Below, one piece after another: positions 2,139 to 14,949 of a stretch of 14,949 bases of DNA (position 1 is its first letter; every line of letters starts with the position of its first letter). This DNA is from Candidatus Hydrogenedentota bacterium. Lineage in GTDB: Bacteria > Hydrogenedentota > Hydrogenedentia > Hydrogenedentales > SLHB01. The translations under genes were made by a program, and so were the position numbers. The DNA lies in assembly GCA_034408725.1 (NCBI GenBank), contig JAWXCN010000166.1, forward strand, positions 1 through 14,949. Direction: 5' to 3'. The notes under the pieces are model-generated. The model had not been told where the DNA came from and made no database searches. It saw only the letters and a list, made by a program, of their open reading frames with translations.

Positions 2139-4295
2139 ATGAACAACGACCAATCATCAGCGCCATCGACGGCGTCATCAGCATTGTTGCGGCAAGTGGA
2201 CCACTTGCACACAACCTTGGCGCGTCTTGAAGAAAGTTCGGGGGCGTTGCCCCCGACGGCCGCGGCCGATTTACTGCACCAGGCGTTGGCCGTTTGCCGC
2301 CAGCTCGAACAGGGTATTCGAGGCTCCGCGGACGAACTGGATGCACAACAACTAAAGCTCGCCGACGCGGAAAAACGCGCACAGCTTGCGGACGAGCGGT
2401 TCCATCTCGCGTATGAGGACTGTCCGTTTTCGATGGCCATCGCGAATGTTTCCGAAGGACGTTTCCGGGACGTCAACAAGATGTTTCTCTTCCGCTTGGG
2501 GTATGTGCGTGAGGAGGTCGTGGGGAAAACATCCACCGAACTTGCAATTTTTCCGGATTCACAAGGCCGGCAATGGCTTGTTGACGCGCTCCAGCGCGAC
2601 GGGCGCGCGGAAGGCATTGAACTCATGGCGCGCGGCAAGGACGGCGAATTCCGGTTGGGCCGCATCTATGCGCGCATCGTGTCGTACAACGGCGAGCAAT
2701 GCATCCTGTCGCTGACACAGAGCCTCGACGAGATTCGCGCCGCCGAGTATGAAGCCATACGCTTGCGCCAGTTTTACGAGCAATTATTGGGAGACCTGCC
2801 GGCACAAATAGCGGTCTTTGACGCCGATGGCCGTTATCTCTACATCTCGCCGAGCAGTGTGTTTGATCCCGACCTCCGCGCCTGGCTGATCAACCGCACC
2901 GACTTTGACTACTGCGAGCGGCGCGGCCGTGATCGTTCGATCGCGGAACGCCGGCAGGAATGGCTTCGGTCTGCCGTGTCCAAACGCGAGATTGTCAGTC
3001 AGGAAGAACGGTTCGACTCGCAGGCGGGCGAGCCGCGCCACTTCATCAGGACGTACAAACCTATTGTCGACCGGAACGGCGTGGTGTCACATGTCATCGC
3101 GTACGGACACGACATTACGGACTTCAAACAACTTGAGGAACAGTTACGGCACGCGCAGAAGATGGAGGCGGTTGGCCGGCTCGCGGGCGGCGTGGCGCAC
3201 GACTTCAACAACCTGCTTACCGCGATGATGGGAATCGCCGATTTCATTTTGCCGCAGGTAGCCGGTAACCCTGTCCTCGAATCGGGCATTGCGGAAATTC
3301 AACACGCCGCGGAACGGGCGGCGGCGCTCACGCGCCAATTGCTTGCCTTCAGCCGGCGCGCGCCCGTGCGAAACGTTGCGGTGGACCCGAGCGGCGTGAT
3401 CGATGCCCTGGCCACGATGCTGCGGCGCATCATCGGTGAAAAGGTTTCCCTTACGCTTGCGCTGGACCACGATGTGCCCTGCATCATGGGTGATCCCGGA
3501 CGTCTGGAACAGATCATCATGAACCTTGTCGTGAACGCGCGCGATGCGATGCCCGAAGGCGGCGCGCTGACGATTGAAACCGCGCGCGTCCAAGTCCCGG
3601 TCGATGATGAGGTAAACCAGCCCATGCCGCTGGCCGGGGAGTACGCGCGCATCGCGGTGCGGGATACGGGAGTTGGTATCGATCTTGAAACCAAGCAGCA
3701 CATTTTCGAGCCGTTCTTTACCACCAAGGCAGAAGACAAGGGCACCGGCTTGGGGCTCAGCACGGTGTATGCAATCGTCGAACGCTGGGGTGGGCGTGTG
3801 CAGGTTGAAAGCGAACCGGGTAGCGGCACGGCATTCTTCATCTATCTGCCGTGCGTGGACGAGCACGTCGAGAGCGCGGCGGCAATACCAAAATCTTCGA
3901 CCGGAACCGCGGGGTCGGAAACGGTGCTCGTGGTGGAAGATGAAGACGCGGTGCGCGACGTGGTTTGCCGCATTCTCGGGCGCTGTGGGTACACGGTGCT
4001 TGAGGCCGCGAATGGCGAAGATGCCCTATCCATGGCGGAACACTATACAGGCCCGATCGATATGCTCGTTTCGGACATGGTGATGCCGGGTATGTCAGGC
4101 CGGCAACTTGCCGAACGGCTGCTCGAGCACCGTCCATCCATCGCGATGTTGTTCATGTCTGGGCATTGTGAAGACATGGACGCCGAATTTGTGGCGCAAC
4201 TTCAACCACCGGCGTTTATTCAAAAACCATTTGCATCGACCGAGCTTGCTGTAAAGGTCCGGGAGCTATTGGGACAGTGCCGGGTACCGCAGTAG
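2139..4295 (+). CDS. Cytoplasmic hybrid sensor histidine kinase (coiled coil-PAS-PAS-HisKA-HATPase_c-REC; CckA-like architecture)
   Basis: H-box LAGGVAHDFNNLL, N-box IMNLVVNARDAM, G1 DTGVG, F-box IFEPFFTTK, G2 GTGLGLS. Receiver motifs VLVVEDE, SDMVMPGMSG, FMSG and KPF. Two PAS/PAC-like segments and no TM helix. Confidence 0.95.
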   Translation: MNNDQSSAPSTASSALLRQVDHLHTTLARLEESSGALPPTAAADLLHQALAVCRQLEQGIRGSADELDAQQLKLADAEKRAQLADERFHLAYEDCPFSMAIANVSEGRFRDVNKMFLFRLGYVREEVVGKTSTELAIFPDSQGRQWLVDALQRDGRAEGIELMARGKDGEFRLGRIYARIVSYNGEQCILSLTQSLDEIRAAEYEAIRLRQFYEQLLGDLPAQIAVFDADGRYLYISPSSVFDPDLRAWLINRTDFDYCERRGRDRSIAERRQEWLRSAVSKREIVSQEERFDSQAGEPRHFIRTYKPIVDRNGVVSHVIAYGHDITDFKQLEEQLRHAQKMEAVGRLAGGVAHDFNNLLTAMMGIADFILPQVAGNPVLESGIAEIQHAAERAAALTRQLLAFSRRAPVRNVAVDPSGVIDALATMLRRIIGEKVSLTLALDHDVPCIMGDPGRLEQIIMNLVVNARDAMPEGGALTIETARVQVPVDDEVNQPMPLAGEYARIAVRDTGVGIDLETKQHIFEPFFTTKAEDKGTGLGLSTVYAIVERWGGRVQVESEPGSGTAFFIYLPCVDEHVESAAAIPKSSTGTAGSETVLVVEDEDAVRDVVCRILGRCGYTVLEAANGEDALSMAEHYTGPIDMLVSDMVMPGMSGRQLAERLLEHRPSIAMLFMSGHCEDMDAEFVAQLQPPAFIQKPFASTELAVKVRELLGQCRVPQ

Positions 4296-5682: not shown

Positions 5683-6693
5683 TTACGAATTTAAAGGAAA
5701 CGGCATCAGGACTTTTTCGTGTTCGACGGGCTTGGCCGGTACAAACGGGTCCGCAAAGATTTCCTTCAGACTCGCGCCCATTAGGAAGGTCTGCTTTTGT
5801 AATTTCTTCACGAGATCGGGGTGGCCGCAGAGATATACACGGAATCCTTTTAATGCGAGCAATATCTCCGGCACGTGAGCATCGATGGGGCCGAGGTGCA
5901 TGCCAGCATCGACATCGCCTTCGAGGACACAAGGGTGATAATGAAACTGAGGCGCGCGCTCGGCCAATGCGCGCAAACGATCCACGAGATACAACCCCGC
6001 CTTTCGAACGCTTCCGTGAAACAGGTGAATTGGGCCGTCATGCCCCTGCCGCAGCGCATCGGTGAGAATCCCCAGCAGCGGGGCCAATCCCGTGCCTGTG
6101 CCCACGAGCAGCAATGGTTGTGTTGTGTTTCCGGGCACATAAAAACAATTGCCGTGCGGCCCCAACAACTCGACGGAGTCGCCTGGTTTTGCGCGCTCAT
6201 GCACCCAACCGCTCATAGCGCCTCCCGGCACGCGCGCCACGTGCAACGCGAGGGTGTCGTCTACACCTGGAATACTGGCCAGTGAATAGCTGCGGACAAT
6301 TCCATCGGGATTGACGAGGTTCACAAATTGGCCTGGCCGGTAGTCGAACGTATCCGCGCAACGCAACCGCACCTCGCTGACTGAGTCGTTCAACAACTGT
6401 AGTTTCGCAATTGTGGCCACGCACCGGAAACCCGCGCCTGGTCGGCCGATCACCAGCCGCTCCTCCGGTATGCACATGCACGCAAGGAAATAACGCTGAA
6501 CGCGCAAAGTATCGCGCAGTCCCGCCTGCGCTTTGGCCGGTGGTGAACCCTCGAGCGCCTGCATCATGCAGGTCTGACAAATACCGCTGCGGCAGGAGCT
6601 GCGCACGTCTTTGCCGGCCGCTTCCAGCGCATCGAGAACAGTGGCCCCCAGCGGGAGGTGCAGGATCTCCCCCTCGAAAACTATTTCGCCCAT
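5683..6693 (-). CDS. [2Fe-2S]/FAD/NAD(P)H ferredoxin reductase-type protein, putative globin reductase
   Basis: Plant-type Fe-S motif CRSGICQTC...LAC, FAD motifs RSYSLAS and GGAMS, NAD motifs GTGTGLAP and YLCG. Starts 2 nt after the globin stop. Confidence 0.9.
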   Translation of the reverse strand: MGEIVFEGEILHLPLGATVLDALEAAGKDVRSSCRSGICQTCMMQALEGSPPAKAQAGLRDTLRVQRYFLACMCIPEERLVIGRPGAGFRCVATIAKLQLLNDSVSEVRLRCADTFDYRPGQFVNLVNPDGIVRSYSLASIPGVDDTLALHVARVPGGAMSGWVHERAKPGDSVELLGPHGNCFYVPGNTTQPLLLVGTGTGLAPLLGILTDALRQGHDGPIHLFHGSVRKAGLYLVDRLRALAERAPQFHYHPCVLEGDVDAGMHLGPIDAHVPEILLALKGFRVYLCGHPDLVKKLQKQTFLMGASLKEIFADPFVPAKPVEHEKVLMPFPLNS

Positions 6694-6695
6694 TG

Positions 6696-7085
6696 CTACA
6701 CCGATGCGGGAGCTGGCGCGCGGTTTAAGACGTCGTTTCGGGTAGTCTCCACAAGGTCAAGCACCTGCTGAATCAGATGGGCCGGCACCGATAATTCGTT
6801 CAGCGCCTTAACAAGATTTTCTTTTACCGCATCGAAATGGGTATCGTTCAAGCCACGTTCCACCATTTTGGCATGACCGGTACGCAAATCAGCGCCGGTA
6901 TAGGCGTGTGGTCCGCCGAAGGCCATCGTCATGAATGCATGCTGCTTCGCGGCCTGTTTTTCCATATCGATGTCTTCAAACCAGAAATTGATGCGGTCGT
7001 CCTGCAATACGTACCGGTAGAAAATATCGACCGCCTGCTCTACGGCAGCCTCCCCACCGAGCGCTTCAAAAATAGATTTCGACAT
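6696..7085 (-). CDS. glbN: Group I truncated (2/2) hemoglobin, trHbN/GlbN type (129 aa)
   Basis: LGG motif, FY (B9/B10), CD1 Phe, KQAAKQ (E7/E11 Gln), GGPxxYTG, proximal His in RTGH, and HFDAV. ATG 7085 is preceded by SD GGAGAG. Confidence 0.93.
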   Translation of the reverse strand: MSKSIFEALGGEAAVEQAVDIFYRYVLQDDRINFWFEDIDMEKQAAKQHAFMTMAFGGPHAYTGADLRTGHAKMVERGLNDTHFDAVKENLVKALNELSVPAHLIQQVLDLVETTRNDVLNRAPAPASV

Positions 7086-7123
7086 AAAGACCCTCTCCAA
7101 TGTAAATAGCCCCGCGATCCGAG

Positions 7124-7146
7124 AACATATATCTAACATATAGCTT
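7124..7146. promoter_or_regulatory. Candidate NsrR operator (11-1-11 imperfect inverted repeat AACATATATCT-A-ACATATAGCTT)
   Basis: 8/11 arm symmetry. The minus strand AAGCTATATGTTAGATATATGTT resembles the AAGATG(C/T)ATTT-N-AAAT(G/A)CATCTT NsrR-type site. It overlaps a candidate glbN promoter (TTGAAT 7158-7153, 17 nt, TAGATA 7135-7130). Confidence 0.65.
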
Positions 7147-7170
7147 AATGGAATTCAAGCGGCGCCTTCG

Positions 7171-7179
7171 TGCTACACT
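7171..7179 (+). promoter_or_regulatory. Extended -10 (TG-C-TACACT) of nsrR, probably leaderless
   Basis: Ends 6 nt before ATG 7186, with no convincing SD. Confidence 0.45.
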
Positions 7180-7185
7180 TGGATC

Positions 7186-7647
7186 ATGCAACTGACCCTT
7201 TATACCGATTACGCGTTGCGCGTACTCCTCTACCTTGCGTTGCATCCTGAAGGCGCAACTATCGCGGAGATTGCCTCGCGCTATCGGGTGTCGCGAAATC
7301 ATCTCGTGAAAATTGCGCACAATTTGGGCAAGCTGGGGTTGTTGGAAACCAAACGCGGACGCAACGGCGGCTTGCGCCTGACGCGATCGCCCGGCCAACT
7401 GAACCTGGGCGAAATCGTGCGGCTGGTGGAACCGAATTTTCATATCGTGGAATGCTTCGATAGGAAACGGAACGCCTGCTCGATTGCGCCGGCATGCGGC
7501 ATGCGCGGCGCGTTTTACGAGGCACAACAAGCGTTTCTCCAAACACTGGATCGGTATACGCTCGCGGATTTTACTCCGAACGGCGACGAACTTCGGAAGC
7601 TGCTGCGCAGACGCGCGGCGCCACCGTCACTAGCCCGGGAAGCATAG
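7186..7647 (+). CDS. nsrR: Rrf2-family NO-sensing transcriptional repressor (NsrR-type)
   Basis: MQLTLYTDYALRVLLYLA, SRNHLVK and RGRNGG, three conserved Cys (IVECF, NACSI, APAC) and AFLQTLDRYTLAD. Divergent from a globin. Confidence 0.88.
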   Translation: MQLTLYTDYALRVLLYLALHPEGATIAEIASRYRVSRNHLVKIAHNLGKLGLLETKRGRNGGLRLTRSPGQLNLGEIVRLVEPNFHIVECFDRKRNACSIAPACGMRGAFYEAQQAFLQTLDRYTLADFTPNGDELRKLLRRRAAPPSLAREA

Positions 7648-7740
7648 CGCTTCGACGCCGAAGTCATTCAAGCCAATCCCCGGCTATGGCGTTTATTTGA
7701 TGTGAGAAGGAGTTGCGATAGACATTGCGGAGGTAGGCGC

Positions 7741-8883
7741 ATGAAACCTGAAGTTATTAAGGCCACTGCCTGGGCGGTCCTATTCACCGGTTTGCTCGCG
7801 ATATCTATCGTGATCGGTTCCCGCAATCTTTCCCGGTTTGACGCGCCGCTCGTCGCGTACACATTCGCAACCCTTTTCGCGATGTTTGGTATCACCTACC
7901 GGTACTCGATGTGGCTTCAACGGCCACCGACGGCGATGTTTTGGAAGCGCGGCTGGCAAACGTTTTTCTCGCGCGGAAGGATAGCGCGGAATACGGGTAT
8001 CTGGTTTGTGCGCGTAGGCGGCGAGTTCGCGCTAAACAATTTCATCTGGAAACGGGCGCGAGTGCGATGGCTGGCCCACTTCCTCATCATGTGGGGTAGC
8101 ATTATTGCCGCCGCCATCACGTTTCCGCTCGTGTTCGGCTGGATGAGTTTCGAATCGCTACCCGGCAACATCGAATGGTACCGGGTCTATATCTTCGGCT
8201 TTCCAACCATAGCGATGCCGCACGAATCTTTCCTCGCCTTTTTTATTTTCCACGGCCTGGTATGGGCCTCGTTGATGGTCATACCCGGCGTCATGATCGC
8301 CATGCGGCGCCGAATGCGAGATGAAGGCGCCGCGGCGCTCCAGACGTTTTCGGAAGATTTCCTGCCGCTGATTCTGCTCTTCGCAGTGAGTGTATCGGGA
8401 TTGTTGCTAACGGTCAGCTATACGTGGCTGCAAGGTTATGGCTATGAATTTCTGGCGTTGCTGCACGCGGTGACCGTCATCTTCACATTGTTGTGGTTGC
8501 CGTTTGGAAAGTTTTTTCATATCTTCCAAAGGCCCGCGCAGCTTGGCGTTGAATTCTACAAGGATGTCGCCGCCGCGGGCGAGGCGGCAACCTGCGGCCG
8601 TTGCGGCCACCCATTCGCATCACTCCTGCACGTGAACGATCTCATCAAGGTTGAGCAGGCGCTGGGTTATCGTTATGAGATTCGCGGAGAGCCCAGGGTG
8701 GGGCATTACCAAAGGATTTGTCCCCCTTGCCGCCGTGCGATGCTAGCGATCGCGCAGGGATCACTCATGCGGGGCTCCGCATACGAACAGACCGGAATGA
8801 CGTTGCCAATGCCCGCGTATGTGAATACCGGTTTGGGCGAAGGGCCGCTTGGCGACGAAGACGCGCGCAATTTTCACCCGTAA
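7741..8883 (+). CDS. Polytopic membrane protein, NarI/HmcE-like cytochrome b anchor with C-terminal CxxC...CxxC domain (380 aa)
   Basis: SD GGAGG at 7729-7733 and several TM helices. Membrane His residues in RWLAH, IFHG and LLH-x17-H (LPFGKFFH). C-terminal CGRC and CPPC. Confidence 0.75.
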
Positions 8884-8898
8884 CAGGAGTATCGAGTC

Positions 8899-11160
8899 TT
8901 GGCTAACCCAGGCACTACTATCGAAGCGATAGCCGGAGAGTTTGGCCCGCATCTTTCCCAATCCACTGGCATGCGGCTCGATTCGACGCTGGTCCCCGAC
9001 AAGGTCGTCAATACGCATTGCTGTTTTTGCGGCCAGCAATGCGGCATCAAACTTTTGGTCAAAGATGAGGTCGTCGTCGGGTTCGAGCCTTGGTACGATT
9101 TCCCGTTCAACGAAGGGAAGCTTTGCCCTAAAGGCGTGAAGCGTTACCTTCAAGGCGCCCACCCTGACCGGTTATTGCATGCATATCAGCGTGACACCAA
9201 CTCGCCAAATGGTTTCCGTGCCCTGGGCTACGACGAGGCCATTGCGCGGGTAGCTTCGGAGATTCAGCGCATCCAGGATGCGCATGGCCCGCATGCCATG
9301 GCCTGCCTTAGTGGGGCGAGCCTTACGACTGAGAAATGTTATTTGATGGGAAAGTTCGCGCGCGTCTGTCTGAAATCGTCGAATATCGATTACAACGGCC
9401 GGTTGTGCATGGTAAGCGCCGGTGCCGCCAATAAAAAGGCTTTCGGCGTAGACCGCGCCGCGAATTCCTGGGCGGACATTCTCAAGACGCAACTGGTTTG
9501 GATTAGCGGCGCGAACATCGCCGAGTGCGCGCCCATCACAACCGACTACGTGTGGCAAGCGCGGGAGAACGGCGCAAAAGTCATTGTCGTTGACCCGCGC
9601 ATTACAGCCATAGCGCGCACCTGTGACCTGTTTCTACCGATCAAGCCCGGGCGCGATGTCGCGTTGTTCAACGGGATTCTTCATTTGATGATCGAGAACA
9701 ATTGGCTGGACCATGATTTTATTGCAAAGCACACCGTAAATTTTGACGAAGTCGCCGCGGGTGTTAAGGACTGCTCACCGTCGCGCACGGCTGAAATCAC
9801 GGGAATCGCCGAACGTGCAATCCGTACTGCCGCGGAGTGGTGGGGCGAGGCCCAATCAAGTTTCCTGCTGCATGCGCGCGGCATCGAACACCACACCCAC
9901 GGGGTGCAGAATTGCCTCGGCGCCATCAATATCGTCCTCGCGTCCGGGCGCATCGGCCGGGAGTTTTGCGGCTACGCGACCATCACCGGGCAGGCAAACG
10001 GCCAAGGCGGACGCGAGCATGGCCAGAAGTGTGATCAGTTGCCGGGTTGGCGCGACCTTGGAAACCCGGAGCACCGTGCGCATATCGCAAAGATATGGGG
10101 CGTGGCCGAGCAGGACCTGCCGCCTCCCGGCGTGGATGCGTACGAAATCTTCCGCAAGATCGATCGGAATGAAATCAAGGGCCTGCTTTCCATCTGCTTC
10201 AACCCACTGGTATCGCTACCGGACAATAACTTCGTGCGGCGCATGTTGCAAAAGCTCGAGTTTTATGTCGCCATCGATTTCTTCATGAACGAAACCGCGC
10301 GATACGCTGACATTGTGTTGCCGGGTTCGCTGCACGAAGAGGATGAAGGCACGGTAACGACAGCCGAGGGCCGCGTCATTAAAATCAACAAGGCAGTCGA
10401 ATGTCCGGGAGACGCGCGCGAGGATTGGCGAATCATCCAGGACATCGCGAAGTCGCTAAATCGGCCGCACGGATTCACTTTCGATTCCCCGCGCGAAATT
10501 CTCGAAGAATTGCGCGTTGCGTCGAGGGGCGGCGTTGCGGATTACTCTGGCATCACGTACGAAAGGCTGGAGAAGGAACATGGGGTTTTCTGGCCGTGCT
10601 ACTCGGAAGAGCATCCTGGCACGCCACGCCTATTCGAACCTGGGACCTGGAACCCGGTGGCAAACGGCAATGGGCCGTTTTACTTTCCCGACGGTAAGGC
10701 GCGGTTTAACGCGATTACCTATCAGCCGCCCGCCGAAGTCACTGACGCCGAGTATCCCTACATTCTGACGACCGGTCGTGTGATCAGTCATTTTCTTTCC
10801 GGTACACAGACCCGGCGCATTGGACCCTTGGTGGATCAATGCCCGGAGCCGTACATCGAAGTGCATCCGGAGCTTGCGGGAAAGCTGGGACTGGCAACGG
10901 GCGATTGGGCAACGGCCGAATCACGGCGAGGAACCTGCACCTTGCCAGTCCGTGTGGTGACGACCATTCGCCCCGATACGATTTTCATTCCCTATCACTG
11001 GCCTGGGCGAAAGAGCGTGAACCAACTCACGATTTCCGCGCAAGACGCCATTTCTAAAATCCCGGAGTACAAGGTCTGCGCGGTGAGGCTAAAGAAAGTG
11101 CCCGCGCCCTCTGCGGAAGAGTTGGCGCGAATCGAGCCCGCTGCGCGGGTGGAGGTATAA
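8899..11160 (+). CDS. Mo/W-bisPGD oxidoreductase catalytic subunit of the Nas/Nap/Fdh clade, nitrate-reductase-like (753 aa)
   Basis: TTG start with SD AGGAG. [4Fe-4S] motif [10 protein letters not shown]...LCPKG, active-site [26 protein letters not shown] and LTTGR. No Tat motif. Confidence 0.9.
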
Positions 11161-11164
11161 GCAC

Positions 11165-11824
11165 ATGCCTGTTTCGGAGTTGCTGGAATTTTTCGTCGAT
11201 CCCGCGAGATGCATCGGGTGCAACGCCTGCGTGCAGGCGTGTTCCGAATGCGATACGCACAAGGGCCATTCGATGATCCAGTTGGACATGATCGACCAGG
11301 CGCATTCAACACAGACCGTGCCGGTGATTTGCATGCATTGCGACTCGCCAACCTGCGCGGAGGTGTGCCCCGCGGACGCCATCAAGAAAACGGCAGATGG
11401 CGTGGTCCAGAGTGCGCGCAAACCACGCTGCATCGCTTGCAACAATTGTGTGCTTGCGTGCCCGTTTGGCGTTCCCAAGATGAATACCGAAACGCATCTG
11501 ATGATGAAGTGCGACATGTGTTACGACCGCAGTTCCGTGGGCAAGAAACCGATGTGCGCGTCGGTATGTCCAAGTCAGGCGCTTTTCTTTGGCACGCGAG
11601 AGGAGATCGCGCGATTACGGCCCCGGTCACGTGCGGTCAATGCCTTTCAATTCGGCAATCAAACCATCACTACCAAAGTGAACATGATGGTGCCCAACTA
11701 TGCGGCGGCGGATTGCATTGATGTCACCGGGTCGATGCACGGCACGGTCATTGGAAATCAGATTGACGCGAGCGTGCTCTATCAGGGGATTGAAACAGGA
11801 GAATCTCACCATGCGTCCACATGA
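11165..11824 (+). CDS. Four-cluster [4Fe-4S] electron-transfer subunit (DmsB/NrfC-like)
   Basis: Four Cys groups: [35 protein letters not shown] and KCDMC...PMCASVC. SD GGAGG. Confidence 0.93.
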
Positions 11825-12359
11825 TGAAGAAAACGTATCGGCAGCGCCGGACGGCGCCCCGCCCGGGGAACAGCCACACTGGCGCCGCCAGTTCCCAATT
11901 GATGTGGCGGAGGACGAGTATCGCTCCCGGCGCGATTTTACGAAACTGCTCGGGCTGACAAGCCTGGCCTTCGTGTCGGGTCAGGGTTTCATTATCGCCC
12001 AGAGCATTACAAAGAAATCCGAAGGGCCTCTTCCCGAAATCGATGTGGCCGCGCTGGACGAACTCGAGGTCGGTATGGCAAAGGTGTTCCAATATCCTCA
12101 CGAAGGAAACGCTTGTGTGCTGGTGCGGATTTCAGAGGACAACTTTGTCGCCTATGGCCAGAAGTGCACACACCTGTCCTGCCCCGTGATACCCAAGCCG
12201 CGAGATGGAAAATTCTATTGTCCGTGTCACAATGGCAGCTTCGACCTGCATACGGGACGTCCATTGGCCGGCCCGCCGCGCCGCGCCTTGCCGAAAGTCA
12301 CTCTGAAAATGGCCAATGGCCGAATCATTGCAACCGGATTGGAGCACGGAGTCGTATGA
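11811..12359 (+). CDS. Rieske [2Fe-2S] protein with Tat-type signal/anchor (182 aa)
   Basis: SD AGGAG at 11797-11801 and 14-nt overlap with the upstream gene. SRRDFTK followed by a hydrophobic stretch, and boxes CTHLSC and CPCH. Confidence 0.92.
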
Positions 12360-12583
12360 AAGGGTCAACATTTGCGCGCAGCCAGCGCGGGGCCATTGTG
12401 CTGGGCATACTCTGCATCGTAGGAACACTTGTCGTGTTTCAGTTGTGGCTTTTGACCGCGACGATGGAAGCGTACCTCGGGGGCAATGATGACATTGTTA
12501 TTCCTGCCGCGCTTGCGAGTGTTGGTTGCTTTTTGCTGAACTTCGGAATTCTCCATTTCTATATGCGGCGCCTGGATCGTTAG
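12356..12583 (+). CDS. Small two-TM membrane protein (75 aa; QLWLLT motif, recalled as DUF6755-like)
   Basis: ATGA overlap with the Rieske stop and two hydrophobic helices. The true start is internal to the ORF-track ORF 12113..12583. Confidence 0.8.
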   Translation: MKGSTFARSQRGAIVLGILCIVGTLVVFQLWLLTATMEAYLGGNDDIVIPAALASVGCFLLNFGILHFYMRRLDR

Positions 12584-12590
12584 CACGGCC

Positions 12591-13646
12591 ATGGAGCCAG
12601 ACAGCACGCCGGCGCCGAAATTATTTTCGCCGCTCTCAACTCTTTTTCCCGGTTACTTTTCGCTCGTTATGGCCACCGGAATCGTCTCAATCGCAGCGCA
12701 TTTCATGGAATACACTTGGATTTCACGAGCACTGTTTTGTTTTAACGTGATAGCATACTGCGTCCTGTGGGCACTGACCCTTGCGCGGGTGCTCTTTTTC
12801 ACACAGCAGATACTCGCGGATATTATGAACAACGCCCGGAGCGTTCTTTTTCTTACCATGGTCGCGGGGACGATGGTGTTGGGCAGCCAGTTTGCCCTGA
12901 TGTCGCCTTACATGGGCGTTGCAAAGGCGCTGTGGTGGCTCGGAATTCTGCTCTGGGTTGTGCTCATCTATACGTTTTTCACCGTGAATACCGTTCACGA
13001 GCCAAAGCCGAAATTTGAAGACGCAATCAATGGCGCGTGGCTGCTCGCCACGGTGTCGACGGAATCTATTTGCGTGCTCGGCACGCTGGTGGCGCCATCG
13101 ATGCGCAATGCGGAGGCGGTATTCTTCGTGTCGTTGTCGGCGTATTTGCTGGGCGCAATGTTTTACATCGTCCTGATAGCGCTGATTGTGTATCGATGGT
13201 TTTTTTTCAGCCTTCCTCCAGACAAATTGACGCCGCCGTATTGGATCAACATGGGCGCGCTCGCCATCACCACGCTTGCCGGTTCGCGGTTATTGTTGTC
13301 CACGACACATTGGCCGTTCCTAGAGACCATCCGCGGATTTATCACCGGGTTTACCCTGTTTTTCTGGGTCACCGGAACATGGTGGATTCCGCTTCTCATC
13401 TTCGTGGGCATCTGGCGGCATGTGGCGCAGCGGGCGCCACTGAAATATGACCCCCAATATTGGTCGCTGGTGTTCCCTATCGGAATGTACACCGTCTCAA
13501 CCTTCATATTCGCGCAGGCAACAGGATTGCAAGTGCTCGCGTCAATACCGGTTGCCGCTTTTTATGTTGCGCTTGCGGCGTGGGCGCTGACGTTTGCCGG
13601 AATGATGCACGCGCTCGCGCGCCAGGCGCTGCACCGCGAAGCGTAG
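12591..13646 (+). CDS. SLAC1/TDT family (tellurite-resistance/dicarboxylate) anion channel
   Basis: About 10 TM helices with PGYFSLVMATGIVS, NGAWLL, PPYWINMGALAITTLAG and YWSLVFPIGMY (gate WxxxFP). Confidence 0.9.
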   Translation: MEPDSTPAPKLFSPLSTLFPGYFSLVMATGIVSIAAHFMEYTWISRALFCFNVIAYCVLWALTLARVLFFTQQILADIMNNARSVLFLTMVAGTMVLGSQFALMSPYMGVAKALWWLGILLWVVLIYTFFTVNTVHEPKPKFEDAINGAWLLATVSTESICVLGTLVAPSMRNAEAVFFVSLSAYLLGAMFYIVLIALIVYRWFFFSLPPDKLTPPYWINMGALAITTLAGSRLLLSTTHWPFLETIRGFITGFTLFFWVTGTWWIPLLIFVGIWRHVAQRAPLKYDPQYWSLVFPIGMYTVSTFIFAQATGLQVLASIPVAAFYVALAAWALTFAGMMHALARQALHREA

Positions 13647-13655
13647 CGGCGTTGT

Positions 13656-13970
13656 TCAGGGCCGGATCGTCACTAAATAGAATTTGCTGTTGGTGTTGGC
13701 GACGAGGCTGTGCGCAACGCGCGGTGCCATCCGAAGCCAAGTCCCCGCAGCGGCTGTGTACTGCTTGTCTTCGACGGTAAGTTCGATTTCGCCCTCAAGG
13801 AAATGCAGCATCGCTTCCATTGACGTGGTGTGCTCCGACATCTCCTGCCCCGCCGTCATCGCAAACAACGTGGCGTGCATCCTTTCGCCTTTGAAAATGA
13901 TGTGGCTCAGAATGCCTTCTTTTGGATATTCAATAGCATTTAACACGTCTAAAACGATTGTATGTTGCAT
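13656..13970 (-). CDS. Single-domain cupin protein (104 aa)
   Basis: Start MQHTIV with SD GGAGA. Cupin motifs GQEMSEH...HFLEG and AGTWLRMAPRVAH. The upstream extension in the ORF track overlaps the next gene and is spurious. Confidence 0.85.
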   Translation of the reverse strand: MQHTIVLDVLNAIEYPKEGILSHIIFKGERMHATLFAMTAGQEMSEHTTSMEAMLHFLEGEIELTVEDKQYTAAAGTWLRMAPRVAHSLVANTNSKFYLVTIRP

Positions 13971-14016
13971 GGTGTTTCTCCGGTGTGTGCGAAAGTGAAA
14001 GACCTTCTCGCTCGCT

Positions 14017-14025
14017 ACTGTACCA
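14017..14025 (-). promoter_or_regulatory. Possible extended -10 (TG-G-TACAGT) for the cupin gene
   Basis: Motif lies in the 64-nt gap upstream of the cupin start. Confidence 0.3.
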
Positions 14026-14034
14026 AACGCCGCT

Positions 14035-14949
14035 TTACTGTTGCGCATAGTGCGTGTACCAGTCGCTCGTGAAGATGTTCGCGGGATCGGACGCGCGCTT
14101 GTGTTCCAGAAACTTGCTGAAACGAGGATGCGCCGCGCGAACCTGCTCCTGCGTTGCGAATATGTGATACGTGAGATAATAGCTGCCGCGGTATTCGATT
14201 GAGCGATCGATGAGCCTGCGGAACGAATCTGCTGCGCCCATAAGGCCCGCGGGCGTATGGTCAACGTGTAGATTGAAAATGACGCACGCCCAGGGTTCGC
14301 GCGCCCATGCGAGAAATGATTCGGAATCTCGCTCGATGAGGCGGACTGTGCCGTAGATGACATTCACGCCGTGCTTGCGAAAATCTCTCGCGCACGTGCG
14401 CATGAATGCGGCAAGCGAAGCGCGGGGTATGTAGGCCTCCGTAATCATTTCCGTGCCGCGCACGTGTGCGCCAGTCTTTTCATCAAGCCATTCGTGGTAG
14501 TCATCAAGATAGGTGCTCATCTGCATGGTGTCTGACCAGTAGATTTGACCTGACGTCGCGCGGTAATGGCCGGCATATGCCTCATAGGCCTTTGCCTTGT
14601 CGACATGGGCGAGATGAATCAGGTCGCGCCATTGCGCCGGTGAAAGTTCGTGTTGATCGTTGGGAACCGGAGTCGAGGGCGAAACCTCGCGGTAGCATGC
14701 CATGACGCCTTTATGCAGGAAACCGGGAGATTGCGCGTCCGTCATATATTGAAAATCTCCATAGTCGAACCCGTCGCGAATGCGGGCATGAAACTTGTCG
14801 ATGGCATCATCAATCGTTGAGATCTCCACAATGCGTTGCATCTTCCGCCTCCGGACGAGTCGCAGCGACACGCTGTACACAATTCCGAAGAGTCCATAGC
14901 CTCCCAAGATGAGCGAGAACAAATCGGCATTCTCGCCACGGCTGCATCG
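14035..14949 (-). CDS. FAD-linked oxidase (VAO/PCMH-type, arabinono-lactone oxidase/DprE1-like), 5'-truncated by the window edge
   Basis: The frame is open to 14949 and reads RCSRGENADLFSLILGGYGLFG. The C-terminus has GSYYLTYH and KRASDPANIFTS. Confidence 0.85.
   Translation of the reverse strand, partial: RCSRGENADLFSLILGGYGLFGIVYSVSLRLVRRRKMQRIVEISTIDDAIDKFHARIRDGFDYGDFQYMTDAQSPGFLHKGVMACYREVSPSTPVPNDQHELSPAQWRDLIHLAHVDKAKAYEAYAGHYRATSGQIYWSDTMQMSTYLDDYHEWLDEKTGAHVRGTEMITEAYIPRASLAAFMRTCARDFRKHGVNVIYGTVRLIERDSESFLAWAREPWACVIFNLHVDHTPAGLMGAADSFRRLIDRSIEYRGSYYLTYHIFATQEQVRAAHPRFSKFLEHKRASDPANIFTSDWYTHYAQQ

Follow-up and report, generated by a model that had tools for sequence, protein, structure and literature searches.

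The window analysed here, a stretch of 14,949 bases from a Candidatus Hydrogenedentota bacterium, is a whole contig of a 5.17-Mb metagenome-assembled genome (MAG; 280 contigs, 92% complete). Six co-oriented genes of this window, g1 to g6, appear to encode a membrane-bound molybdoenzyme with an undescribed subunit set, which is widespread and misannotated. The residues and the neighbourhood of the genes point to a nitrate reductase, and the complex is probably quinol-linked, with a cytoplasmic active site and an outward-facing quinol site formed by a Rieske protein and a haem-b anchor. The six genes are the following:

7741-8883, + strand: g1, six-helix haem-b membrane anchor with a NarI/EtfD-like fold and a Cys4 tail (380 amino acids, aa)
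8899-11160, + strand: g2, putative Nas-type molybdenum bis(pyranopterin guanine dinucleotide) (Mo-bisPGD) catalytic subunit with a TTG start (753 aa)
11165-11824, + strand: g3, four-cluster [4Fe-4S] electron-transfer subunit, DmsB/FdnH-like (219 aa)
11811-12359, + strand: g4, respiratory-type Rieske [2Fe-2S] protein with a twin-arginine translocation (Tat)-like RR motif and a mildly hydrophobic helix
12356-12583, + strand: g5, DUF6755 two-helix membrane protein
12591-13646, + strand: g6, SLAC1/TehA-family anion channel

The initial annotation of this DNA had placed six co-oriented genes at 7741-13646 with junctions of 15, 4, -14, -4 and 7 nucleotides (nt), and both the positions and the spacing were recomputed exactly.

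A five-gene core conserved in order and strand

The first five genes, coding for the haem-b anchor, the Nas-type molybdoenzyme, the 4x[4Fe-4S] protein, the twin-arginine Rieske protein and the DUF6755 protein, constitute the core of the system. With g1 as the query against GTDB, each species being represented by a single genome, at least 599 pattern matches were obtained, at least 526 of which encode a relative of the anchor, and the loci of the best 80 anchor relatives (61-72% identical) were surveyed. In all 64 loci with at least 4200 nt past the anchor, the five core genes were detected by tblastn in the same order and on the same strand; the remaining 16 of the 80 end at contig ends. Such strict retention of order and strand is not due to chance, and the gene-neighbourhood survey that the initial annotation had proposed finds the core to co-occur in every informative locus. 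These best 80 loci come from MAGs of Acidobacteriota, Planctomycetota, Verrucomicrobiota, Chloroflexota, Gemmatimonadota, Myxococcota, Rhodothermales, Armatimonadota (Armatimonadetes) and others, at least eight phyla in all, and the identity of the molybdoenzyme (MopB) across loci is 69-78%, a remarkably high value between phyla.

In the phylum of the window, the anchor was present in only 6 of 94 genomes and in none of three congeners. A complete copy of the cluster was also found in a cultured strain, Deinococcus sp. NW-56, on the 375-kb plasmid NZ_CP026517.1 (locus L082, 5584-12201), where a NarK/NarU-type transporter of the major facilitator superfamily (MFS) takes the place of SLAC1 and the anchor is labelled 'MFS transporter'. 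Owing to this patchy distribution within one phylum and to the plasmid copy, the core unit looks horizontally mobile. A gene for a 65-aa hypothetical protein overlaps the start of the anchor gene in the Deinococcus copy.

Among 8000 scored candidates of the protein databases, at least 6384 anchor relatives of similar length were counted. Of the 120 relatives listed, 7 bear the NCBI name 'MFS transporter'; the names given by the Joint Genome Institute (JGI) are 'nitrate reductase gamma subunit' in 3 rows and otherwise 'hypothetical protein'. More generally, the public names of the cluster proteins are 'MFS transporter', 'hypothetical', 'molybdopterin oxidoreductase family protein' and 'DUF6755 family protein'. 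The system had been suspected to be widespread under generic annotation, and this is indeed the case: the names are generic or wrong for a core that is constant wherever the locus is long enough. A full-text search, subscription journals and supplementary files lying outside its reach, retrieved no paper describing the gene set, and within the same limits the term 'DUF6755' was absent from the literature searched. Tooke 2017 (PMC5449189) and PMC4013037 proved to have no bearing on the system.

The catalytic subunit g2

The product of g2 is made of the domains PF04879 (Molybdop_Fe4S4), PF00384 (Molybdopterin) and PF01568 (Molydop_binding). Its best NCBIfam model is NasC (NF047855) with 779.9 bits, under the equivalog cut-off of 1100. 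Lower scores were obtained with the formate dehydrogenase alpha model TIGR01591 (571 bits, cut-off 666), with the NapA models (254-265 bits, cut-offs 904-931), with AioA TIGR02693 (129.8 bits, cut-off 359) and with NarG TIGR01580 (56 bits, cut-off 1084). The N-terminal cluster motif consists of C41, C44, C48 and C76, and a Cys is conserved throughout the g2 family at the column of the Mo ligand. The motifs GRLCMVSA and ITGQ of g2 align with the C-M and T-G-Q of annotated plasmid Nas/Nap rows, whereas the E. coli and Haloarcula FdhF rows carry (U/C)-H and R-G-Q at the same columns. The active-site Sec/Cys, His and Arg are residues 140, 141 and 333 of E. coli FdhH, and their columns were checked on the E. 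coli fdhF row. As judged from this alignment, g2 carries nitrate-reductase and not formate-dehydrogenase active-site residues.

The solved chains that match g2 best are cytoplasmic formate dehydrogenases (442 bits), and the NapA of D. desulfuricans reaches 335 bits; none of the 35 solved-structure matches is named assimilatory nitrate reductase. In a quick maximum-likelihood tree of 29 rows, 17 of which belong to the family (the window and the Deinococcus plasmid copy included), the g2 family forms its own clade with a Shimodaira-Hasegawa-like approximate likelihood-ratio test (SH-aLRT) support of 100. Its sister, also with an SH-aLRT of 100, is a gene of Deinococcus actinosclerus that adjoins nirBD and an MFS transporter gene; the proteobacterial Nas, Streptomyces Nas and NapA rows compose a separate group (SH-aLRT 97). 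The tree leaves out B. subtilis NasC, cyanobacterial NarB, Klebsiella NasA, AioA and IdrA, and a match on a Klebsiella plasmid (L088) was excluded because no annotated gene lies beneath it. The outcome of this phylogeny, which the initial annotation had put forward as a check, is that g2 nests in no characterised clade among those sampled. A second MopB gene of the same genome (C115:6237-8573, 748 aa) lies on a very long tree branch (9.65) and was assigned to none of Nas, Nap and Fdh.

The membrane anchor and its electron-transfer partners

No Pfam family, NarI (PF02665) included, matched g1 at E <= 0.01, and the comparison of its sequence with the Protein Data Bank (PDB) returned a chance match only (E 1.9). 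The NCBIfam matches were all weak (E about 1e-5) and concerned the haem-b parts of QmoC and TcuB. The AF2 (AlphaFold2) model of g1 displays six long helices, with a predicted local distance difference test score (pLDDT) of 81 and a predicted template-modelling score (pTM) of 0.76. In a VIA-align comparison, where Z values under about 13 can be generic for helical bundles, this model was matched by M. smegmatis EtfD (9ojn_A; Z 11.7, 249 residues aligned) and by E. coli NarI (1q16_C; Z 10.9, root-mean-square deviation 4.9, 182 of 224 residues, 18% identity), the next row being at Z 8.1. A Foldseek search of the model against the PDB gave no match at E <= 0.001, and EtfD came at rank 9. The description of g1 as a NarI-like anchor thus finds its support in the fold and none in Pfam.

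Eight residues are invariant in 28 anchor sequences, i.e. H113, H171, H242, H260, C285, C288, C327 and C330. From their positions in the helices, the four His could ligate one haem near each membrane face. Counted together, Lys and Arg number 9 and 2 in the loops assigned to the inside and 2, 1 and 0 in those assigned to the outside, which fits an anchor with both termini inside. The Cys4 tail gave only sub-threshold zinc-ribbon matches, of 15 bits or less.

In g3, Fer4_11 was recognised with 78.6 bits, and the DmsB model with 97.7 bits, under its cut-off; the NarH-type model TIGR01660 reached 39.7 bits for a cut-off of 524. The closest solved chain is FdnH (1kqf_B, 101 bits), NarH being at 51 bits. 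Sixteen Cys are arranged in four cluster motifs (16/19/22/26, 56/59/64/68, 89/92/95/99 and 116/119/131/135) and are kept in at least 95% of 69 sequences, in accordance with the four [4Fe-4S] clusters first annotated.

The g4 protein matches the Rieske domain PF00355 with 43 bits. R40 and R41, the CTHLxC and CPCH boxes and the residues W24, R25, F28 and P29 are invariant in 29 sequences, and the boxes contain the additional pair of Cys that characterises respiratory Rieske proteins. Twin arginines followed by an uncharged 16-mer are present in all 67 Rieske family members; together with the domain match, this agrees with the Tat Rieske protein of the initial annotation. The N-terminal peptide, which is placed in the cytoplasm, is unusually conserved. 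The closest solved chains to the family profile are the Thermus bc Rieske protein (61 bits) and AioB (58-60 bits), with dioxygenase ferredoxins at 39 bits or less, and the best NCBIfam model is the arsenite-oxidase small subunit TIGR02694 (46.1 bits, cut-off 95.65). No longer Rieske fusion was seen at E <= 1e-15 among 1325 candidates, which is weak evidence. Finally, g5 is a DUF6755 protein (PF20540, 91.1 bits, cut-off 27), encoded by a single gene in its genome; it has two hydrophobic segments with Lys or Arg at both ends, as expected from its first description as a protein with two transmembrane (TM) helices.

Transporters linked to the core

The SLAC1 channel recognised in the initial annotation was recovered over the whole domain, PF03595 matching g6 with 161 bits (cut-off 27.9) over profile positions 4-330 of 331. 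In the 60 loci with at least 1300 nt past g5, the following transporter genes were counted:

SLAC1 homologue next after g5: 34 of 60 loci
NarK-type MFS transporter next after g5: 15 of 60 loci
SLAC1 elsewhere in the locus: 6 of 60 loci
NarK elsewhere in the locus: 3 of 60 loci
neither SLAC1 nor NarK: 2 of 60 loci

A SLAC1/TehA-type or NarK-type transporter is therefore encoded in 58 of these loci. The MFS proteins of the loci score best with the NarK family (210-277 bits, cut-off 312). Furthermore, at least 2233 longer relatives of the anchor were found at E <= 1e-10 among 8000 candidates; the 120 fusions listed all contain MFS_1, measure 677-793 aa and are often named NarK by JGI. In one NarK-anchor fusion examined, the anchor is joined from its residue 4.

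Two other apparent fusions were set aside. The anchor-MopB fusion of locus L069 was rejected because a stop codon separates the two genes, and the three-way MFS-anchor-MopB fusion P0166 (708 aa) has a low-complexity tail and is most likely a frameshifted gene call; neither was used for the topology.

The genes that recur around the 80 loci are those of RIC/ScdA (8 loci), Crp/Fnr (7), universal stress proteins (Usp; 7), nitronate monooxygenase (3), NrfA (2) and NrfH (2). Neither a NirB/NirA cluster nor a cytochrome c or cupredoxin gene was recurrent among the neighbours of the cluster in these 80 loci. The nitronate monooxygenase gene (PF03060), coding for another nitrite-yielding enzyme, stands just upstream of the anchor gene in its three loci, for example at L057:6424-7860. 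Nitrate is favoured as the substrate by the putative active-site residues, by the alternation of NarK and SLAC1 and by the NarK-anchor fusions, and g6 would accordingly serve as the nitrate/nitrite pathway. The nitrate/nitrite guess made at the outset gains weight from the same three observations.

Predicted assembly and topology

A three-chain complex of the anchor, DUF6755 and the Rieske protein, the latter being the scored partner, was modelled from our own alignments. The model obtained an interaction prediction score from aligned errors (ipSAE) of 0.77 (0.75, 0.77 and 0.77 in the runs). Among the controls, the best value was 0.52, when the anchor was replaced and the Rieske protein still packed on DUF6755, and the two partner-replaced controls gave 0.00. 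Of the solved complexes used for calibration, 58 of 80 attained this mark, as did 2 of 110 mismatched pairs; these figures hold only roughly for models built from own alignments. The contacts agree to at least 77% between runs and the pLDDT of the partner is at least 79.

In the model, the Rieske helix 39-65 packs between both DUF6755 helices, and the contacts of lowest error are those between residues 22-59 of DUF6755 and 47-61 of the Rieske protein. The loops around the Rieske cluster (120-125 and 138-142) contact the anchor outer loops 30-38, 130-147, 161-170 and 226-239 and adjoin the presumed ligand H171, and the N-terminal peptide contacts the cytoplasmic parts 2-8, 54-61, 202-204, 247-256 and 308-310 of the anchor. 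The model supports, without demonstrating it, the binding of the Rieske protein, DUF6755 and the anchor; DUF6755 is predicted to clamp the Rieske helix, and the modelled geometry is that of a quinol site flanked by the Rieske cluster and the outer haem. With regard to the modelling of the complex proposed in the initial annotation, these three subunits are predicted to assemble, and g2 and g3 remain outside the model.

Several observations argue that the active site of g2 lies on the cytoplasmic side. A twin-arginine motif with an uncharged stretch occurs in none of 63 family MopB sequences, and a twin-arginine signal in none of 66 FeS (g3) sequences. The NarK-anchor fusions require the N-terminus of the anchor to be inside, which places its Cys4 tail in the cytoplasm as well. 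Moreover, only an enzyme that works inside the cell would have use for a nitrate/nitrite transporter of its own. The Rieske protein, on the contrary, should face outward, owing to its constant twin arginines, its CTHLxC and CPCH boxes and its kinship to the bc Rieske protein and AioB.

Genome content of the carriers and setting of the locus

Among the four MopB genes of the MAG that harbours the window, none codes for NarG or NapA. No NrfA was found in it, no NirK over cut-off and no assimilatory nitrite reductase either, its sole NIR_SIR gene adjoining a PAPS (3'-phosphoadenosine-5'-phosphosulfate)-reductase-like gene (named by eye). The content of this MAG, incomplete as it is, fits the reduction of nitrate to nitrite, export of the nitrite and detoxification of nitric oxide (NO).

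The other carriers of the phylum differ in this respect. NarG is present over cut-off in two of the five, a third has NarG in two pieces, a fourth has a NarG-like gene under cut-off and one has none. A role as simple substitute for Nar was therefore rejected: replacement would be true at most for the present MAG and for G027. In two of the carriers of the phylum, narG is disrupted: in G061 (C53:5848-9421) it occupies two adjacent frames, and in G058 (C39:42292-45879) it contains one in-frame TAG; these disruptions could be frameshifts, sequencing errors or pseudogenes.

No match to PF00033 or PF13631 was obtained anywhere in the MAG, g1 included. A bc-type cytochrome b is nevertheless encoded in all five other carriers and in all three congeners, so that replacement of the bc complex by the present one has no support, and the missing cytochrome b is probably due to an assembly gap. 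In one carrier, the contig that bears the cluster also has a gene for a bc-type cytochrome b (G050:C124:13719-14324), at a distance of about 8 kb.

Within the window, the following genes precede g1:

7186-7647, + strand: Rrf2/NsrR-like regulator (PF02082, 129 bits), 93 nt before g1
6696-7139, - strand: truncated globin (Bac_globin), divergent from the Rrf2/NsrR-like gene
5683-6693, - strand: Fer2-FAD-NAD reductase, directly after the truncated globin

The Rrf2 gene reached 133 bits with the NsrR model, under the cut-off of 182, and it is possibly co-transcribed with g1-g6. It accompanies the cluster in 2 of the 80 related loci, and the link is specific to the genome of the window and a few others. 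The truncated globin and the reductase resemble an NO-dioxygenase pair. In the gap between globin and Rrf2, positions 7124-7145 hold a tandem AT-rich 11-mer (AACATATATCT / AACATATAGCT), which could be an operator of the regulator; no similar word was seen upstream of g1. Further upstream, at 2139-4295 (+), lies the gene of a hybrid histidine kinase (PAS, PAS_4, HisKA, HATPase_c and receiver domains), for which no connection with g1-g6 was evident. Downstream of g6, a cupin-domain open reading frame (ORF) at 13656-14363 (-) is overlapped by an ORF at 14035-14949 (-), which leaves the contig and has only a sub-threshold FAD/NAD-binding match; where they overlap, probably no more than one of the two is a real gene.

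Both the family alignment and a GGAGGT motif, 6 nt 5' of the ATG, speak for the start of g1 at 7741. The six genes had been described as one operon. Their spacing and the conserved synteny agree with it, whereas simple scans of 7000-14100 detected no promoter or terminator signal above shuffled controls (promoter-like 3 vs 3.9 expected; terminator-like 5 vs 8.6 expected), and the operon is thus deduced from gene spacing and conserved synteny. The locus is contained, in part or whole, in seven DNA runs that bear the label microbial mat metagenome.

Proposed mechanism and alternative readings

If the complex is, as we consider probable, a quinol-linked nitrate reductase with an internal active site, nitrate would enter and nitrite would leave through the SLAC1/TehA-type channel, replaced elsewhere by a NarK-type porter that is often fused to the anchor. 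Quinol would be oxidised at the outer face of the anchor, where DUF6755 would hold the Rieske protein, inserted by Tat, with its tip over the outer haem-b ligands. The electrons would cross the membrane via two b haems carried by the four invariant His, run along the [4Fe-4S] clusters, four in g3 and one in g2, and end at the Cys-ligated Nas-type Mo-bisPGD site on the cytoplasmic side, at which nitrate would be reduced to nitrite. With protons released outside and consumed inside, the system would constitute a redox loop as in NarGHI. The substrate, the direction of the reaction, the quinol donor, the way in which g3 and g2 dock on the cytoplasmic face and the precise part played by the Rieske protein are inferred in this scheme, whereas the gene content, the synteny, the alternation and fusion of transporters, the active-site residues, the export signals, the anchor fold and the predicted Rieske-DUF6755-anchor interface come from computation.

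Several points weigh against it. The quinol link is drawn solely from the modelled fold of the anchor, and the Z of its NarI match lies in the range that can be generic for helical bundles. The haem ligands of NarI are two His on each of two helices; in the anchor, TM6 carries two His, and TM3 and TM4 carry a single one each. NarI works without a Rieske protein, which leaves the invariant Rieske subunit unexplained. As g2 and g3 are outside the modelled complex, their docking on the cytoplasmic face of the anchor is presumed, and their lack of a signal does not by itself exclude a periplasmic enzyme, since AioA crosses the membrane without its own signal by riding on AioB. The g2 tree is thinly sampled (29 rows), was made with a quick method and has several long branches. 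No RNA run is listed as containing the locus. Finally, the complex coexists with a true NarG in two of the five other carriers and with a split one in a third, and is therefore more than a substitute for Nar.

The Rieske subunit would find a reason in a hybrid of bc complex and nitrate reductase, with a bifurcating quinol site of the Qo type built from the Rieske protein and the outer haem b. One electron of the quinol would then go via the Rieske cluster to a periplasmic high-potential acceptor, and the second, strongly reducing, via the b haems and the FeS clusters to the Nas-type Mo; soluble Nas-type Mo centres need low-potential donors. If true, bifurcation would represent a new energy-coupling design and explain why a Nar-like wiring always keeps a Rieske subunit. 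The absence of a bc complex in the carriers, taken as a test of this idea, lends it no support, given the bc-type cytochrome b of all five others, and we consider it unlikely, though worth keeping in mind.

An assimilatory role would leave the complex and its chemistry as they are: the enzyme would be a quinol-driven replacement for the ferredoxin- or NADH-dependent Nas and deliver nitrite for biosynthesis. The proximity of g2 to the NasC model, the nirBD and MFS transporter genes beside the tree sister of g2 and the coexistence with NarG in two or three of five other carriers, suggestive of a job other than that of Nar, are compatible with this. However, the recurrent neighbours at the 80 loci are not of the NirB/NirA type but RIC, Crp/Fnr, Usp and NrfAH, and the MAG of the window yielded no assimilatory nitrite reductase at 92% completeness. 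This role is distinctly unlikely.

In a third possibility, g2 and g3 would be exported by riding on the Tat signal of the Rieske protein and form a Nap-like or Aio-like periplasmic enzyme. The twin-arginine motif is indeed found on the Rieske protein only, whose best NCBIfam model is the arsenite-oxidase small subunit (46 bits, cut-off 96), and AioB is among the closest solved relatives of g4. An outward enzyme, however, needs no porter, yet 58 of 60 loci have one and NarK-fused anchors number thousands; the conserved Cys4 tail of the anchor and the conserved N-peptide of the Rieske protein are both cytoplasmic; and g2 possesses a Cys ligand and a four-Cys cluster motif, in which it departs from AioA as described in the relevant part of PMC7331816. 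Such an orientation is improbable.

Even less probable is a flow in the reverse direction, where cytoplasmic nitrite, or the precursor of another oxyanion, is oxidised at the Mo and the electrons leave via FeS clusters, b haems and Rieske protein to a periplasmic acceptor (cytochrome c or cupredoxin) and a terminal oxidase. To our knowledge, the respiratory Rieske protein of every characterised system (bc1/b6f, Aio) hands its electrons to a periplasmic high-potential acceptor, and a NarK-type antiporter would serve either direction. Nevertheless, the known Nas/Nap-type Cys-ligated enzymes are reductases and the known nitrite oxidoreductases are of the NarG type, no gene for a cytochrome c or a cupredoxin recurs beside the cluster, and the NO-stress neighbours (RIC, NsrR, globin) fit the production of nitrite.

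There is equally little to recommend another substrate (chlorate, selenate, tellurite, arsenite, formate or other) carried by the same transporters: g2 scores under the NasC equivalog cut-off (780 vs 1100) and forms a separate clade, and TehA was first named for tellurite resistance, but the His and Arg of formate dehydrogenases and the features of AioA are absent from g2, the MFS alternative to SLAC1 is of the NarK family and the neighbours are related to nitrogen oxides.

Significance and comparison with known systems

Teaching distinguishes three kinds of prokaryotic nitrate reductase (Nar, Nap and Nas), and genome and metagenome surveys assign nitrate respiration from narG and napA, with Nas-type genes treated as assimilatory. 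A quinol-linked nitrate reductase of the type proposed here would be a fourth architecture beside these three, spread over at least 526 GTDB species and thousands of metagenomic protein clusters, mainly of soil and sediment phyla. Its catalytic gene is labelled 'assimilatory' or 'molybdopterin oxidoreductase' and its anchor 'MFS transporter'; surveys would then underestimate how far Acidobacteriota, Chloroflexota, Gemmatimonadota, Planctomycetota and others can reduce nitrate. The cluster may explain a result given in the pertinent section of Eichorst 2018 (PMC5900883), where acidobacterial isolates reduce nitrate and only 'nasA' genes were found, should those strains carry it. The invariant Rieske protein on a NarI-type cytochrome also poses a concrete bioenergetic question.

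The initial annotation had concluded that the set matches none of the known systems, and at least one defining feature indeed failed for each of Nar, Nap, Nas, Aio, Fdh and the bc complexes. The complex would work most like NarGHI with NarK, with which it shares a predicted di-haem-b anchor of NarI-like fold, a four-cluster FeS subunit, a signal-less catalytic subunit and a linked NarK-type transporter, as well as the presumed redox loop and cytoplasmic active site. NarG, however, is an Asp-ligated protein of roughly 1250 aa, whereas g2 has 753 aa and is Cys-ligated and Nas-type, and NarH has about 500 aa against 219 for g3. The anchor g1 differs from NarI by an extra N-terminal helix, the Cys4 tail and another His pattern, and Nar lacks the Rieske and DUF6755 subunits that are invariant here. 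No match to a NarJ/TorD-type family was found among the ORFs scanned in the window, small ORFs lying outside the scan.

The g2 protein resembles NasC, NarB and NasA in its Cys ligand, in the C-M and T-G-Q residues, in the [4Fe-4S] motif near its N-terminus and in its presumed location in the cytoplasm. The partners of Nas are ferredoxin, flavodoxin or an NADH diaphorase, whereas those of g2 are membrane-bound in all 64 informative loci. The passages of Wells 2020 (PMC7331816) on the Nas/Aio/Nap/Fdh clade state that its members lack any association with the canonical subunits of the four-cluster and membrane-anchor types and that the role of NasA/NasC is purely assimilatory, and the corresponding entry of Wells 2023 (PMC10100899) gives NasC/NasA as cytoplasmic and assimilatory. 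The g1-g5 core, as read from its sequence, contradicts this generalisation about the partners of the clade, at least in the form it takes in those passages of PMC7331816.

Nap is distinguished by the Tat signal of NapA and by NapB/NapC, no NapB/NapC-like gene being present in the window. In AioAB, as in the present system, the MopB subunit has no signal of its own and belongs to the same broad clade, and its small partner is a Rieske protein with a Tat signal, to which the RR motif of g4 would correspond. It has no four-cluster FeS subunit, membrane cytochrome or transporter, unlike the g1-g6 set, and AioA has no amino-acid Mo ligand, according to the same part of PMC7331816, where g2 has a Cys.

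The Qo site of bc1/b6f offers the CTHLxC/CPCH Rieske protein with a one-helix anchor and, as predicted here, its tip on the outer face of a di-haem protein. Those complexes contain cytochrome b and cytochrome c1 or f, whereas g1 is NarI-like; no PEWY-type motif was seen by eye in g1 and no c-type cytochrome gene in the operon. In EtfD, the best structural match to g1, and in TcuB and QmoC, a NarI-like haem-b domain is likewise joined to cytoplasmic Fe-S modules. These are CCG/HdrD-type domains with other donors, whereas g1 has a short Cys4 tail only.

The nearest described idea is, from the account in PMC4683180 as far as the portion on this enzyme goes, the pNar of haloarchaea and Methanoperedens, a nitrate reductase that is also tied genetically to a Rieske protein and a b-type cytochrome (NarB/NarC). 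It is built from different parts, since its catalytic subunit is exported and of the NarG type and its cytochrome is of the bc1 type, whereas the present enzyme has a Nas-type and presumably cytoplasmic catalytic subunit on an anchor of NarI-like fold that does not match PF00033.

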